NCBI GenBank assembly: GCA_031370785.1
Contig: JANMQY010000143.1
Location: forward strand, 1-13,222
Length of the DNA stretch: 13,222 nucleotides
Origin: Candidatus Eiseniibacteriota bacterium
GTDB taxonomy: Bacteria; Eisenbacteria; RBG-16-71-46
Direction of reading: 5' to 3'
A program made the translations under genes and the position numbers. Shown here piece by piece: positions 127 through 6,294 of the stretch (position 1 is its first letter; each line of letters begins with the position of its first letter). A model generated the notes under the pieces. The model did not search any database, was not told where the DNA came from, and worked only from the letters and a program-made list of their open reading frames with translations.

Positions 127-2928
127 TCAGGCGCCAGCCGACGCCGATTTGGTCGCCTGCAGGTGCTGGCGCAGGAATCGGCCGGTCCATGAGTCAGGAG
201 CTTCGAGCAATGACTCCGGCGGACCCTCTACCACCAGCTTTCCCCCTCGATCGCCGCCGTCGGGGCCGAGATCTACTACCCAGTCGCAGTTCGAGATGAC
301 GTCGAGGTTGTGCTCGACGACGATCACCGTGTCTCCGCGGGCGGTCAGATCGTCGAGGACTTCCAGCAGCCGCTGGACGTCGCTGAAGTGCAGGCCGACT
401 GTCGGCTCGTCGAGCAGGTAGAGCGTCGGGCCCTCGCCTTTCTGCGAGAGCTCGCGCGCAATCTTGAGGCGCTGAGCTTCGCCGCCCGAAAGCTGGGTCG
501 CCGGCTGGCCGAGCCGCAGGTAGCCGAGCCCGACGCGGCGCAACAGGTGCAACGCGCGGGTGAACTTGGGCTCGGTCGCGAAGTGCTGGAACGCCTGGTC
601 CACGGTCATGTCGAGCGCATCGCGGATGTTCGCCCCGCGGAATCGCACCTCGAGCACTTCGCGCCGGAAGCGGTCGCCTCCGCACGCTTCGCACGGCACC
701 AGCAGGTCGGCGAGGAAGAACATCTCGACCGTCACCAGCCCCGCGCCCTCGCACTGCTCGCAGCGCCCGCCCGGGGTGTTGAACGAGAACGCGCCCTCGC
801 GCAGGCCGCGCGCAAGCGCCGCCGGCTGGCGCGCGAAGATCTCGCGCAATGGCGAAAGCGCACCCATGTAGGTCACTGGACACGAGCGCGGGCTGCGTCC
901 GATCGGAGTCTGATCCACCATCGCGATCCGGCGCAGCGACTCGAGCCCGCGCACCGCGCGATGCGCCCCCGCAGGCTCCTCTTCGCGGCCCTCGAGTGCG
1001 CGCCGCGCGGCGCGATACAGCACTTCCTCGACCAGGCTGCTCTTGCCCGAACCCGAGACGCCGGTGACCGCGCTCAGCCGCCCGAGCGGGAAGCGCACGC
1101 TCACGTCGCGCAGGTTGTGGTGCGTGGCGCCTTCGACGCTCACGAAGCCGCTCGGGACGCCGCCTCGACGCGCGCGGCTGACGCGCTTCTCGCCGCGCAG
1201 ATAGCGCGCGGTCTCGGAATCGGCAGCGCTCAAGGCTTCTCCCCCGGGCCCGGCGTAGAGCACGTTGCCACCGAGCTGGCCGGCGCCCGGCCCCAGGTCC
1301 AGCAGATGATCCGCGGCGCGCATGATCATGGGCTCGTGCTCGACCAGCACCAGCGTGTTTCCGCGCCCGGCCAGCTCTTCGAGGATCGAGATCAGGCGCT
1401 CGGTGTCGCGCGGATGAAGCCCGACGGTCGGCTCGTCCAGCACGTAGAGCGTGTCGGCGAGGTTGGCGCCGAGCGCGTTGGCCAGCTCGATGCGCTGCGC
1501 TTCGCCTCCGGAAAGGGTCCGGGTCAGGCGATCGAGCGTGAGATAGCCGAGATCCACGCGCTCGAGAAAGCCGAGCCGGGAATTCAGCTCATCCAGCACC
1601 GGCCCCGCGATCTCGCGCTCGAGCGCGCTGAAGTCGAGCGCGGCGATGAATGCCGCCGCCTGAGTCACGGTGAGCGCGACCACCTCCGCGATGTTGCGCT
1701 CTGCGATCCGCACGCTCAGCGCCTCGGGACGGAGCCGCGCGCCGCCGCAGGTCTCGCACGGGAGCGCGGTCTGGTAGGCCTTGACCAGGAACCGGTTGCC
1801 GGCCTTGTACGACTTGGCCTGCAGGCGCTCGAGGAATGGCATCACCCCGCGGAATCCTTCGCCACCTTCGAGCAGGATCTTCCGCTGCGCGGCGCCGAGG
1901 CGCTTCCACGGCATATCGAGCGGAATGCCCTGCTTCTTCGCAAAGGCTTCGAGCCTCGGCATCGCGATCTTCTTCCACGATCCGGCCCACGGCCTGATCG
2001 CGCCTTCGCGCAGCGTGAGCGAGGGGTTGGGGACCACCAGGTCCGCCGTGAACGTGAGCACGTTCCCGAATCCGCGGCAGGTCGGACACACCCCGAGCGG
2101 GCTGTTGAAGGAGAACAGCGCGGGCTCGGGCTGGATCGCGGCTGCACCGCACCGGCCACACTCCCAGCGCTCGCTGCGGCGCTCGACGTCTGCCGAGCCG
2201 CGCTTGAGCTCGAGCACTCCCTCACCGCGCCGGAATGCCTGCTCGCACGCTTCGGCGAGGCGTGCGTTCTCGGTCGCCTTCCACGTGAAGCGATCCACCA
2301 CGATTCGAACCTGTTTGGTCGCGCGCGGCAGCTTGGGCACCGGGTCCAGAGCGACGATCTCGTCTCCGAGCAGAATCCGGGTGAACCCGGCGCGCAGCAG
2401 GTGGGCGGCCTGTTCCTCCCAGGTGAGTCCCGCCGCGAGCCTGACTGGCGCCAGCACCAGCAGCGCCTCGCCCTCAGGCCAGCCGGCCGCTTCCCGGACG
2501 ATGGTTTCGGGGCGGTCGGGCGCGACCTTTCGGCCGCAGTTCATGCACTGCACCGTGCCCAGGCGCGCGAACAGCAGGCGAAGGTAGTCGTGCAGCTCGG
2601 TGGCGGTCGCCACCGTGGATCGCGCACTGCGCGTCTTGGCGGACTGCTGGATCGCGACCGCCGGCGTGAGCCCCGTAATCGAGTCCACATCGGGCCGCGG
2701 CAGACGATCGAGGAACTGCTTGGCGTAGGTCGAGACCGACTCGACGTAGCGTCGCTGGCCCTCGGCATACAGCGTGTCGAAGGCCAGCGACGACTTCCCT
2801 GAGCCCGAGACGCCGGTGATCACGCTCAGGCGGCCGCGCGGCAGATCCACGTCGATGTTCTGGAGGTTGTGCTGCCGGGCGCCACGGATGCGAATGACCG
2901 TCGCCCCGCGATGGTCGTGGTCGTTCAA
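127..2928 (-). CDS. uvrA: Excinuclease ABC subunit A (UvrA family), possibly a second paralog
   Basis: 933 aa. N-terminal [15 protein letters not shown], two Walker A motifs (GVSGSGKSS), [11 protein letters not shown], two ABC signatures (LSGGEAQR), Walker B motifs ([22 protein letters not shown]), multiple CxxC zinc modules and C-terminal [11 protein letters not shown]. The TTG start at 2928 is uncertain by a few codons. Confidence 0.96.
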
Positions 2929-2980
2929 GGATGCCTCGCGTGAGGTCGTCCGGCCTTGTGGGATGAAGGAAGGTCGGCGA

Positions 2981-2989
2981 ACTATATCA
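2981..2989 (-). promoter_or_regulatory. Candidate extended -10 sigma70-type promoter for uvrA
   Basis: The minus strand reads TGaTATAGT (TGn plus a 5/6 match to TATAAT) about 50 nt upstream of the uvrA start, in a GC-rich context. There is no good -35 at 17 nt spacing. Confidence 0.5.
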
Positions 2990-3028
2990 CGCGGGTCACG
3001 ACCGGAATGACAGTGCGTGGGAGGCGAA

Positions 3029-3054
3029 CGGCTCGCTCTTCCATGAGCGAGCCG
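3029..3054. repeat. Perfect 10-bp inverted repeat (hairpin)
   Basis: CGGCTCGCTC (3029-3038), loop TTCCAT, GAGCGAGCCG (3045-3054). Confidence 0.8.
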
Positions 3055-3180
3055 CCGCAGTGAACTGGAGGAAAACAGCCAGCCCTAGCGCAAAGCCCCC
3101 AGCCCCCAGGCGAGACTCGTCGTCACCGCGGAACGCGGCAGATCGCGAGTCCGATTCGTCCGGCACATCCAGTGCCCCTC

Positions 3181-3222
3181 TAAACAATCGGGGATTGGCC
3201 GACGTGGAGCCGACCAATCCCC
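3181..3222 (-). terminator. Probable intrinsic terminator or 3' stabilising hairpin of the micropeptide transcript
   Basis: Minus-strand RNA GGGGAUUGGUCGGC-UCCAC-GUCGGCCAAUCCCC forms a 14-bp stem. Its two G-U pairs work only on the minus strand. It starts 24 nt after the TAA and is followed by an imperfect U-rich tail, GAUUGUUUA. Confidence 0.65.
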
Positions 3223-3246
3223 TGAGGACGTGCCAGGTCCAGATGG

Positions 3247-3315
3247 TTACTTCTTCTTCTTCGCAGCCTTCTTCTTCGTGCCCTTCTTCTTCGCAGCCTT
3301 CTTCTTGGCAGCCAT
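3247..3315 (-). CDS. 22-aa lysine/alanine-rich micropeptide MAAKKKAAKKKGTKKKAAKKKK (histone H1-like composition)
   Basis: Translated by hand: ATG at 3315-3313, TAA at 3249-3247, 69 nt. GAGGAGGTGA lies 6 nt upstream and a strong hairpin follows. It is too short for the supplied ORF track. Confidence 0.8.
   Translation of the reverse strand: MAAKKKAAKKKGTKKKAAKKKK
3253..3306. repeat. Exact 24-bp direct repeat, period 30, inside the micropeptide ORF
   Basis: CTTCTTCTTCGCAGCCTTCTTCTT at 3253-3276 and 3283-3306, encoding KKKAAKKK twice on the minus strand. Confidence 0.9.
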
Positions 3316-3321
3316 TACGAA

Positions 3322-3331
3322 TCACCTCCTC
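3322..3331 (-). promoter_or_regulatory. Very strong Shine-Dalgarno for the micropeptide
   Basis: Plus-strand TCACCTCCTC is minus-strand GAGGAGGTGA, followed by spacer TTCGTA and then ATG. Confidence 0.88.
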
Positions 3332-3412
3332 ATTTCTGAACTCGATGCGACGGAGCGAACCCCGCCAGGACGTCGTTGGCGGCCGCGTTCTCTGCGGCCC
3401 TTGCGGCCCGCG

Positions 3413-3436
3413 CGCGAAGCACCCGAGTGCTTCGCG
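3413..3436. repeat. Perfect 10-bp hairpin near the predicted 5' end of the sigma54 transcript
   Basis: CGCGAAGCAC (3413-3422), 4-nt loop, GTGCTTCGCG (3427-3436). Flanking GGCC/GGCC can extend the stem. Confidence 0.8.
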
Positions 3437-3456
3437 TGGCCTTGCATTCAGGATTA

Positions 3457-3472
3457 AGCAGCAGCTATGCCA
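3457..3472 (-). promoter_or_regulatory. Sigma54 (RpoN) -24/-12 promoter
   Basis: Minus-strand TGGCATAGCTGCTGCT matches consensus TGGCAC-N5-TTGCW with exact GG-N10-GC spacing. It lies about 210 bp downstream of a sigma54 activator gene and points at the micropeptide ORF. Predicted start site is about 3446. Confidence 0.78.
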
Positions 3473-3595
3473 CGAGGCCGCGAGGTCTCTGGATTCTGCT
3501 CGCAAGATGATGTGTCGAATTAGATTAGTAATTTACGAGAGCGCGCGAAGCTCTGTGGAGAAGCGTGGAAAGCCGCGTGGATAAACCCCGTAACC

Positions 3596-3684
3596 GTCAA
3601 GTTTATTGCGGCTTACTGCGATTTCATTACGCAAGCGCTTGCGAATGAATCAATTGCCCGCGAGTGTCCAGAAATTTGTGGGTG

Positions 3685-3698
<14 letters not shown>
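3596..3698. promoter_or_regulatory. Candidate upstream activator sequences (GTCAA-N5-TTG repeats)
   Basis: GTCAAGTTTATTG (3596), GTCCAGAAATTTG (3666) and GTCAAGAGACTTGAC (3684, palindromic). They lie roughly 150-250 bp upstream of the predicted sigma54 start, in a relatively AT-rich stretch. Confidence 0.45.
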
Positions 3699-5055
<1,357 letters not shown>

Positions 5056-5062
5056 CGAGGGC

Positions 5063-6163
5063 TCATTCCTCCGGTTTGCCCGACGGCTCGGCCGGCACCG
5101 GGAACGAGACGCGCAGCGTAGCACCGCCGCCCGCATTGTTCTTGGCGGTGATCACGCCGCCCACGTCGCGCACGATCTGCACCGAGATCGGCAGCCCGAG
5201 CCCGGTGCCCATGGAGCGCGTGGTGAAGAACGGGTCGAAGATCTTCTCCATCAGCTCGCGCGGGATCCCGACCCCGCTGTCCTGGAACGAGACGTCGATC
5301 ATGGAGCGCCGCGTCCGGTAGCGGCGCACCGCCGTCGCCACGTGCAACTCGCCCCCCTCGGGCATGGCCTGCACCGCGTTCAGGCACAGGTTCAGGAACA
5401 CCTGCTGGGTCAGATCGGGGTCCACCACCACCTGCGGCACGTCGTCGTCGTAGTCGCGGACCAGCTTCACCTCGGCGTCTCCGAGCTGCAGCTCGAGCAG
5501 ATCGAGGGTCTTGTCCAGGATCGGATGGAGATCGCACGGCTGGGGCTTGGCGGCCGGAGGGCGCGCGAACATGAGCAGTCCGGTGATGATCTGCTCGATC
5601 CGGTCCAGCTCCTTGATCACGTCTTCGAGGTCCTCGCGCCGCGAGTCGTTGGGCTTGAGCTTGGAGCCCACGAACTGGACCGTGGTGCGGATCCCGGTCA
5701 GCGGATTGCGGATCTCGTGGGCCACGTAGGCGGAAAGCTCGCCGAGTGAGACCAGCCGGTCGATCTTCTTCTGGAATTCGCCGTCCTCGGTCTCCGAGAT
5801 GGCTTCGCCGAGCACGACCGACCCGACCACCTCGCCGTCCTCGTCTCGCAGCGGCAGGGACTCGGCCTTGAGCGTGAGCTGGCGCCCTTCGGCCTCGAGC
5901 TTGAAGTCGCGCGGCTCGCGCGAGGCGCCCTTGAGCCAGCGGGCCTCGGCCCCGGGGAACAGGCGCGAGCCGGGCATGCCGATCAGGGCCCCGGCCTCGA
6001 GCCCGAGCAGCTCCTCGATCCGCCGGTTGCTGTAGATCACCTTCCGTTCGCGGTCGAGCGCGACCACCCCCTGCTCGAGCGCATCCAGGACCAGCTCGGG
6101 CACGGGGTCCGGGCGCGCCGCGGGCTCGGTCTCGGCGTGGCGGCTGACGGCATCGCTGCGCAT
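5063..6163 (-). CDS. Cytoplasmic PAS-domain sensor histidine kinase (NtrB/AtoS-like)
   Basis: PAS-like VLDALEQGVVALDRERKVIYSNRRIEELLG, H-box AYVAHEIRNPLTGI, N-box QVFLNLCLNAVQAM, G1 DSGVGI, F-box IFDPFFTT and G2 GTGLGL. No hydrophobic membrane segment. ATG 6163 is preferred because GGGAG lies 5 nt upstream; GTG 6223 is the alternative. Confidence 0.93.
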   Translation of the reverse strand: MRSDAVSRHAETEPAARPDPVPELVLDALEQGVVALDRERKVIYSNRRIEELLGLEAGALIGMPGSRLFPGAEARWLKGASREPRDFKLEAEGRQLTLKAESLPLRDEDGEVVGSVVLGEAISETEDGEFQKKIDRLVSLGELSAYVAHEIRNPLTGIRTTVQFVGSKLKPNDSRREDLEDVIKELDRIEQIITGLLMFARPPAAKPQPCDLHPILDKTLDLLELQLGDAEVKLVRDYDDDVPQVVVDPDLTQQVFLNLCLNAVQAMPEGGELHVATAVRRYRTRRSMIDVSFQDSGVGIPRELMEKIFDPFFTTRSMGTGLGLPISVQIVRDVGGVITAKNNAGGGATLRVSFPVPAEPSGKPEE

Positions 6164-6294
6164 GAGCACTCCCGAACGGCGGGTGAACAGATCGACAAAG
6201 ACGTAACACCGGTGCGGCGTCACGCTCCATCATAGCCGCTCGCACCGACCTCGCGGGTGCGGAATTTCGATGGGACCGGGACGCGGCCGCGCGG

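Follow-up and report, generated by a model that had tools for sequence, protein, structure and literature searches.

Polycations built from lysine and alanine repeats are otherwise known as tails, or as proteins of at least 150 residues, as in histone H1, Hc2, AlgP and HupB. Passages of PMC2848022 describe lysine-rich pentamers of variable number in the DNA-binding protein Hc2, and passages of PMC9239181 describe AlgP as binding DNA and as associated with polyphosphate granules during nitrogen starvation. Here we describe a 22-codon open reading frame (ORF) for a lysine-rich peptide on the minus strand of a 13,222-nucleotide stretch of DNA from Candidatus Eiseniibacteriota, which is called the window below. 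The window is a complete 13.2-kb contig of an assembly with 3.44 Mb, 147 contigs and 67.8% GC. We consider, with moderate confidence, that this ORF is a conserved Eisenbacteria gene, likely translated into a +13 oligolysine, predicted to be switched by a sigma-54/NtrC system, and that its product would bind DNA, RNA or polyphosphate by charge.

The ORF is located at 3315..3247, with the ATG at 3315 and the TAA at 3249..3247, and its product is MAAKKKAAKKKGTKKKAAKKKK. The codon order is ATG, GCT GCC (AAG)3 GCT GCG (AAG)3 GGC ACG (AAG)3 GCT GCG (AAG)4 TAA. The peptide contains 13 lysines and no aspartate or glutamate, and follows the period M-AA-KKK-AA-KKK-GT-KKK-AA-KKKK. The minus strand before the ORF reads GAGGAGGTGA-TTCGTA-ATG, which places the Shine-Dalgarno (SD) sequence at 3331..3322, 6 bases from the ATG. 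Both features were assigned from the sequence and from a comparison of 92 loci, and the ORF also from its deduced amino-acid sequence. The fit of the SD to the anti-SD was taken from the general bacterial consensus; no 16S rRNA gene was found in the assembly. A longer form of the ORF is not possible, as the frame is open for 24 codons only.

Lysine is scarce in this genome. Among the residues of 582 long ORFs, lysine accounts for 2.3% and arginine for 8.7%, and only three small ORFs (12-80 residues) in the whole 3.44-Mb assembly have at least 30% lysine, while the window ORF reaches 59%. In the whole genome there are about five instances of the 9-mer GGAGGTGAT with a start codon behind it at SD spacing. 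Because of this scarcity of lysine, of lysine-rich small ORFs and of such ribosome-binding sites, the window ORF is far from chance. The exact peptide and six relatives (7/7 looked up) were absent among about 15 billion predicted proteins, and Pfam and NCBIfam searches with the window peptide gave no match. Long ORFs also overlap the locus, namely 2996..3505 on the minus strand, 3060..3584 on the plus strand and a Phe-rich antisense ORF at 3230..3457 on the plus strand. None of them reached the Pfam cut-off, and since they cross the promoter, the terminator and variable spacers they were treated as shadows of a GC-rich genome and rejected as genes. Gene callers may choose such a shadow ORF and so mask the micro-ORF.

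The 92 loci, counted after duplicates were removed, came from a similarity search and a pattern search. The similarity search covered 61 related genomes and, in every genome of the window's family, recovered the DNA between the SD and a point shortly after the downstream hairpin, with best E-values from 2e-14 to 2e-81 and with the flanking intergenic DNA mostly unaligned. The pattern search, for KK-stop, a short gap and a 15-nucleotide element described below, gave 86 matching stretches among contigs of one genome per species. The majority of the 80 listed matches were titled as metagenome-assembled genomes (MAGs) of Candidatus Eisenbacteria (Eiseniibacteriota), and the remainder were titled "uncultured bacterium" or "bacterium"; by type, all 92 loci come from Eisenbacteria MAGs. 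Three contigs with the ORF and the 3' element stand under other titles (L106, L121 and L138; Saccharimonadaceae, Methylomirabilota and Udaeobacter MAGs), which is likely due to mis-binning.

We looked for frame-breaking indels and for loss of the ATG or the SD, and start, SD and stop were kept in all 92 loci. The ORF was intact without any frame break in 92/92, with ATG as start codon in 90 and GTG in 2, and TAA as stop codon in 74 and TAG in 18. An SD was present in every locus, as GGAGGTGA within 22 nucleotides of the start in 84 and as GGGGGTGA in 8. There were 32 peptide variants of 17-27 residues, none of them with an acidic residue, and length differences were whole codons, often whole pentamers (17, 22 and 27 residues). 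The two spacer residues between the lysine blocks were A, G, T, V, S or P, and synonymous changes were many. Only six non-lysine codons stood at lysine positions, and every one encoded arginine (CGC 3, AGG 2, AGA 1). CGC differs from AAG at all three bases, and replacement of lysine by arginine only, including by CGC, points to probable selection on charge. Among the lysine codons, 1195 were AAG and none was AAA, although AAA has a share of 8.4% of lysine codons in the genome as a whole and of 4.6% in EF-Tu, two GroEL genes and a ribosomal-protein cluster. According to passages of PMC4363877, iterated AAA cuts protein output more than AAG does; the absence of AAA would fit selection for clean poly-lysine translation. 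It could be argued that there is no gene here at all and that a purine-rich AAG repeat is open by accident, as the sequence is of low complexity and without database match. We find this hardly credible, because the SD, the ATG and the stop, together with promoter and terminator, are kept in register throughout 92 loci, lysine is replaced by arginine only, and lysine is rare in the genome. We consider it very probable that the window ORF is translated.

The strongest argument for coding comes from the long positional homologs in sister families. In families f14-f16, f10 and f6, ORFs of 67-124 residues occupy the same position and keep the xxKKK period, for example MVAKKKTAKKKTAKKKVAKKK... and (TAKKK)n; V or T serve as spacers, and lysine is in places changed to arginine. 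These homologs are proteins, not leader peptides. Families f11 and f13 have versions of 16-18 residues at the same position. Across the phylum the number of pentamers ranges from 3 to about 17 and the length from 16 to 124 residues. Because (xxKKK)n ORFs of 16-124 residues are found at one and the same position, the sequence places the window peptide at the short end of a pentamer-repeat family resembling histone H1 tails. The K3-x2-K3 pattern was found in 172/206 genomes of the phylum, typically at a single locus in the window's family. A six-frame search of the phylum with the window peptide gave only 18.9 bits (E about 0.006) for identical copies, so its tally of 20/206 reflects the threshold and not the distribution. 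A homology search with a 90-residue homolog was also of no use, giving just 10 matches, all of them K-rich tracts fused to SWIB domains and compositional in nature. Five long homologs (L147, L148, L153, L154 and L052) have short, hydrophobic, Pro-rich C-terminal tails (MPSPFMPPL, MPALPPL, MPPSLPPL, IMPPA and MEPPITIL), and the micro versions lack a hydrophobic C-terminal tail. The tail may serve as a tag for docking or degradation.

Very small, very basic ribosomal proteins such as bTHX, bS22 and eL41 are known. Size, charge and the very strong SD of the window ORF would suit a ribosome-associated micro-protein, a peptide lodged in rRNA and perhaps a stress-specific ribosome factor. The same genome has a second tiny basic ORF of 31 residues, MGSGKKRKRKKIATHKRKKRLRKNRHKKRIR, on contig C45 of the assembly (outside the window, plus strand, start 59013), which adds to this possibility. 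It is preceded by the SD-like AAAGGAGA, had no match in an NCBIfam search, and presumably resembles a small ribosomal protein of the bS22 type. Cationic nascent chains are also described, in passages of PMC9207662, as interacting with the ribosome tunnel. But a length of 16-124 residues set by repeat number is ill-suited to a fixed rRNA pocket, the sequence is of low complexity with freely varying spacers, and the locus is predicted to have a dedicated sigma-54 switch rather than a place in a ribosomal operon, so we regard a ribosomal role as very unlikely.

The coding part of the preliminary description of this DNA stood up well. The 22-residue lysine-rich micro-ORF with a strong SD is confirmed by the DNA sequence, the deduced peptide and the genome-wide scarcity of lysine; the xxKKK period and the lack of acidic residues are both seen in the window peptide; and the proposal of a stand-alone, minimal Lys/Ala repeat protein gene is borne out by conservation in 92 loci and by the longer positional homologs. 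What it overlooked is the sigma-54 promoter with its activator, the structured leader, the invariant 3' element and the conserved uvrA neighbour.

Upstream of the ORF, the minus strand at 3472..3458 reads TGGCAT-AGCTG-CTGC, a sigma-54-type promoter (TGGCAT-N5-CTGC) with the -24 GG and the -12 GC 10 nucleotides apart (GG-N10-GC spacing), near to TGGCAC-N5-TTGC and with a predicted start at about 3446. The motif TGG[C/A]A[C/T]-N6-TGC was found upstream on the sense strand in 79/92 loci, 105-170 nucleotides before the ATG where there was a single match; the controls gave 2/92 on the antisense strand, 0/91 downstream and, averaged over 100 shuffles, 0.41 loci. The motif is lacking in 13 loci; most of these come from families in which a receiver gene lies just upstream, and a few show near-variants such as CGGCAC or GGGCAC. 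No sigma-70-like site was found in 2800..3800. The genome encodes rpoN (TIGR02395, 442.2 bits against a cut-off of 277).

The next gene upstream, at 3685..5136 on the minus strand, encodes an NtrC-family sigma-54 activator with receiver, AAA+ and HTH domains; its NCBIfam scores (AtoC 444.5 bits, NtrC 397 bits) are both below the equivalog cut-offs. Its ortholog lies upstream on the same strand in 57/92 loci, that is in all loci with a flank long enough to reach it. In its longest form the activator ORF shares about 70 nucleotides (its first ~25 codons) with the kinase gene, which makes its start codon uncertain, and the true start is probably the later Met that precedes "RLTVLVVDD". At 5063..6223 (minus strand), upstream of the activator, the kinase gene encodes a PAS/HisKA/HATPase_c sensor histidine kinase (Pfam HATPase_c 4.3e-21, HisKA 3.7e-15, PAS_4 8.4e-10). 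The window ORF is predicted, on this evidence, to be under its own sigma-54 promoter and the adjacent NtrC-type activator.

An inverted repeat, GTCAAG-N3-CTTGAC, stands over the activator stop codon at 3684..3698, belonging to neither strand in particular. It occurs in 30 of the 45 loci with enough far-upstream DNA, 331-406 nucleotides before the ATG. Further elements are TGGACA at 3665..3670, CTTGAC at 3596..3601 and the CAA-N-TTG palindrome CGCAAGCGCTTGCG at 3630..3643, and the 7-mers GTGTCAA, CTTGACA and CGTCAAG were found in 53, 48 and 45 of 76 loci, respectively. The repeat, the TTGACA/TGGACA elements and the palindrome are plausible candidates for upstream sites to which the activator would bind. 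The coding end of the activator gene would then double as regulatory DNA, and its elements are conserved across genera.

The gene order in more distant families allows the partners to be compared. In 12 of 23 more distant loci, the C-terminus of the activator is followed by a lone receiver gene and, 40-90 nucleotides later, by the K-rich ORF; uvrA follows in 13 of the 23. In the nine loci of f14-f16, a script found the order activator, receiver, long K-rich ORF in 8/9, then the hairpin, and uvrA was not within the fetched downstream DNA (about 0.2-1.6 kb by locus). By eye, the -24 box before the receiver gene is of the TGGCAC type in 8/9 of these loci and TGGTAT in L147, and the -12 box is TTGC/GTGC, TGGTA or TTGTA. 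The window's family has no receiver gene; its ORF comes with a leader and with a predicted sigma-54 promoter of its own. Since the receiver/activator order holds in distant families and uvrA does not, it is the sigma-54 two-component module that constantly accompanies the K-rich gene throughout the phylum, with the uvrA link confined to part of it.

The predicted 5' leader is about 130 nucleotides long (3316..3446, minus strand). It has a hairpin at 3436..3413, about 10 nucleotides from the predicted 5' end, with a perfect stem of 10 base pairs and a UCGG loop. A hairpin of at least 6 base pairs with a UCGG loop was found in 28/79 transcripts, with 23 distinct stems. It is absent in leaders of 80-100 nucleotides, and the UCGG hairpin is for this reason outside the core of the unit. 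Its stems covary in the long-leader relatives, and it may act as a 5' stabiliser. The idea that the leader is what remains of the lost receiver gene was considered and rejected, as tblastn of receiver proteins against the 400-nucleotide intergenic regions of the window's family gave a best E of 0.38.

Six bases past the stop codon is the 3' element GGACCTGGCACGTCC, of 15 nucleotides (3226..3240, minus strand); across loci, 5-20 variable bases separate it from the stop codon. The 48 loci found by similarity give an independent figure for its conservation: the exact 15-mer in 45, a single change in one, and GGGCGCGTCC in two of another family. The element and the adjoining hairpin arm each occur once in the genome. 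A search for another copy of the RNA tail in the genome found none, the best other match being 16 nucleotides (E=0.039). In ensemble folds of the 79 transcripts the element was on average 38% unpaired, 20% in its own 4-base-pair mini-hairpin and 5% paired to the SD, and these folds showed no consistent pairing partner. A search of the entire window against Rfam 15 at the gathering score gave no match, and neither did a search of 3150..3700 at E<=1.

Several roles for the 3' element were tried and rejected. Sequestration of the SD was suggested by an RNAalifold pair, GGAgGUG/CACgUCC, but both sides are invariant, the flanks show no covariation by eye, and the mean pairing probability in 79 transcripts is 0.05. 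As a second sigma-54 promoter the element holds TGGCACG, but no TGC stands at -12 spacing in any locus seen. A LexA-type operator for uvrA does not fit an element that is single-copy and stays beside the ORF, 209-890 nucleotides from uvrA. The discriminator base is wrong for tRNA-Lys in a T-box-like or tRNA-acceptor pairing via UGGC, and there was no Rfam match. In the ORF itself, (AAG)n as an Hfq-binding tract was dismissed, as Hfq was not found in the genome.

The element is followed by a terminator-like hairpin at 3190..3222 (minus strand), predicted with 14 pairs, a loop of 5 and a weak T tail. In an alignment of 47 sequences, four of its pairs were changed on both sides yet remained paired, and several loci have wholly different stems. 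A second hairpin past the terminator (3100-3190), GGCAC-TGGAT-GTGCC, is present in the window and not conserved in relatives.

The gene downstream is uvrA (127..2928, minus strand; NCBIfam TIGR00630, 1044.8 bits, above cut-off). It lies on the same strand in 69/92 loci, the remaining loci having short flanks. Among the loci printed, the gap to uvrA is 209-890 nucleotides, and in some relatives the spacer is long enough for another small gene. This arrangement raises the question of a leader peptide, in which the 13 lysine codons, or poly-lysine stalling at the stop, would control read-through of the hairpin into uvrA. The frequent position of uvrA downstream on the same strand (69/92 loci and 13/23 more distant ones), the weak T tail of the hairpin and the stop codon 24 nucleotides before it would suit such control. 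But no alternative anti-terminator pairing was seen, either by eye or in ensemble folds of 79 transcripts, the hairpin lies out of reach of a ribosome at the stop codon, and uvrA has no link to lysine supply. Also, the distance to uvrA is variable, homologs of 67-124 residues cannot be leaders and have no uvrA in the fetched downstream DNA at 9/9 such loci, and RNA contigs of one run, X17, end at the hairpin. Attenuation by a leader peptide is thus highly improbable.

In eight metatranscriptome runs, 25-44% of the words sampled from 3150-3520 were present, which is roughly the conserved part, and four of the eight (X17, X18, X8 and X9) were aligned to the locus. Run X17 (study P12) gave short contigs over 3278-3443, 3186-3275 and 3188-3295, and run X18 (study P13) a 330-nucleotide contig over 3160-3436, with none outside in either run; the uncovered flanks and the depth in X17 and X18 are not usable as evidence of absence. 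The contigs of these two runs end within 3-10 nucleotides of the predicted start at ~3446, and at or just past the hairpin (end 3190). The RNA contigs roughly match the predicted transcript of about 260 nucleotides, which we take as a weak hint.

From these parts the following course of events can be proposed. The PAS kinase would sense a cytoplasmic signal and phosphorylate the activator, which would bind the palindromes around its own stop codon and open the sigma-54 promoter. The resulting monocistronic RNA would have about 260 nucleotides, and its near-perfect SD would give high initiation and very efficient translation. The +13 peptide, probably unstructured, would bind polyanions by charge and would neutralise and compact them, as an encoded counterpart of a polyamine or an H1 tail. 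DNA is our first guess for the polyanion, hinted at by uvrA, because uvrA is the conserved neighbour.

Several points weigh against this proposal. Translation and the peptide are predicted from sequence comparison, and the binding partner is pure inference. The loci are kin, so the counts overstate their independence, and 46/92 came from the pattern with KK-stop and the 3' element, so that invariance of these parts there is by construction. In-frame length changes are weak evidence of coding, because (AAG)n and 15-nucleotide units slip by threes whether coding or not. The RNA contigs show neither strand, ends nor level, and in a third study (runs X8 and X9) the contigs, 4.8 and 8.1 kb long, extend over the entire stretch and may be DNA. 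The sigma-54 contact loop of the activator is GAFTDA and not the canonical GAFTGA. The loop is GAFTDA or GAYTDA in 18/18 orthologs with the loop inside the fetched DNA, which makes it a conserved variant, and six-frame translation of the genome shows 4 GAFTDA and 8 GAFTGA motifs. As for H1-like families, the PF07382 (Hc2) hidden Markov model (HMM) gave no match to the window peptide at E<=10, nor did NCBIfam NF038053 (Burkholderia-type H1-like, cut-off 80 bits), which gave 13.9 bits for the 96-residue homolog L050 and 8.2 bits for the 101-residue L052. With PF07382, L050 gave E=1.1 and 9.8 bits (cut-off 40) and L052 gave no match.

Two further observations concern the nucleotide level. The invariant 15-nucleotide element is the most conserved piece of the unit and is unaccounted for by the peptide alone. 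Of 54 ORFs with 22 codons, 42, 38 and 21 have retained GCT, a rare Ala codon, at positions 2, 7 and 17, respectively; GCT supplies 4.4% of the Ala codons in the genome as a whole and 4.6% of those in highly expressed genes. The activator proteins of these loci are just ~70-80% identical, so the synonymous sites should have drifted. The GCT excess is accounted for neither by a peptide-only model nor by expression-linked codon bias, and together with the invariant element it points to constraint on the nucleotides themselves.

For this reason we retain, as a possible but unlikely alternative, a dual-function or mainly regulatory RNA, in which the sigma-54 transcript of ~260 nucleotides would act via the 15-nucleotide element and the terminator, as the seed of a small RNA (sRNA) or a protein site, and the peptide would be secondary or a second function. 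The seeds of 3'-derived sRNAs sit directly before the terminator, and here the 15-mer, conserved above all else in 45/48 loci of two families and single-copy, is placed in the same way. It is largely unpaired or in its own mini-hairpin in the ensemble fold and so accessible, and codon bias linked to expression leaves the constraint on GCT unexplained. Passages of PMC6075780 and PMC8745638 also describe a sigma-54 activator with an adjacent small-RNA gene, QseF/GlrR with glmY. However, complementary 10-mers numbered 141 in the genome against ~85 expected, with no convincing target, and the lone match at a ribosome-binding site (purQ) is inside the coding end of the upstream gene; as a chance-level result, this led us to reject the element as an sRNA seed. 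A search for Hfq in this genome, rated 100% complete, found none, and Rfam gave no match even at E<=1. Families with a long ORF lack the element or have it in altered form, whereas the ORF is universal, and the coding signals would still be left to explain.

We therefore keep to a translated oligolysine gene as the favoured account. A bolder version of it, which we hold to be quite doubtful, would combine both levels: the two-component sigma-54 switch would serve only an oligolysine "protein polyamine", with the dose tuned by pentamer number, and in the short lineages the 15-nucleotide element would be a second, RNA-level effector. The unit, as a dual-function RNA, would then couple charge-based DNA protection to the excision-repair gene uvrA beside it.

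In its layout the locus can be compared with known small transcripts. SgrS/SgrT is a dual-function sRNA with a small ORF, a conserved short element and a terminator; the layout alone is alike, and in our genome Hfq was not found. LuxO-Qrr is another two-component sigma-54 system with an adjacent small transcript, besides QseE/QseF(GlrR)-glmY. The QseE/QseF system resembles the present locus in having a kinase, an NtrC-type activator, upstream sites, a sigma-54 promoter and a short monocistronic RNA beside the activator, as far as passages of PMC6075780 and PMC8745638 describe it. The RNAs of both systems are non-coding, whereas here there is a conserved ORF with a strong SD. The present locus adds a defined output, as predicted, to a sigma-54 two-component system, and its invariant RNA/DNA element and odd synonymous-codon constraint are flagged here as lying beyond current models.

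Among proteins, the closest architecture appears from sequence to be that of the Hc2 pentamers, though no HMM of an H1-like family matched. Hc2 (HctB, PF07382), which condenses the nucleoid, likewise has Lys-rich pentamers varying in number and a Lys/Ala composition without acidic residues, and the variable copy number of pentamers that characterizes Hc2 is also found here, from 3 to ~17 across the phylum. It differs in its 165-237 residues against 22 here (16-124 across the phylum), in its regulation and in its phylum. The likening of the window peptide to K/A repeats of the H1/Hc2 type in the preliminary description is therefore upheld for the xxKKK architecture and by the homologs of 67-124 residues, but not for membership in the Hc2 and H1-like HMM families. 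AlgP (AlgR3) of Pseudomonas aeruginosa, the HupB tail and the C-terminal domain of linker histone H1 share the repetitive, polycationic H1-like tract. In AlgP this is a 154-residue KPAA tail on a folded domain, but the present protein consists of the tract alone; the partners of AlgP give concrete candidates, DNA and polyphosphate, for the oligolysine peptide.

Among the papers listed by literature searches, none concerned a stand-alone bacterial oligolysine micro-gene or gene regulation in Eisenbacteria. What is new here is the free-standing micro form, the phylum-wide series of repeat numbers, the predicted dedicated sigma-54 switch and the 3' element. As the gene is invisible to gene callers and protein databases, low-complexity micro-ORFs should stay in annotation and not be filtered. 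The locus offers a natural system for studying the minimal working polycation, tuning by pentamer number, and the signal that calls for flooding with oligolysine. Compared with the tails and larger proteins of H1, Hc2, AlgP and HupB, the tract alone, with 16-27 residues, is here a free-standing gene, predicted to be strongly expressed and tightly regulated, and conserved across an uncultured phylum.

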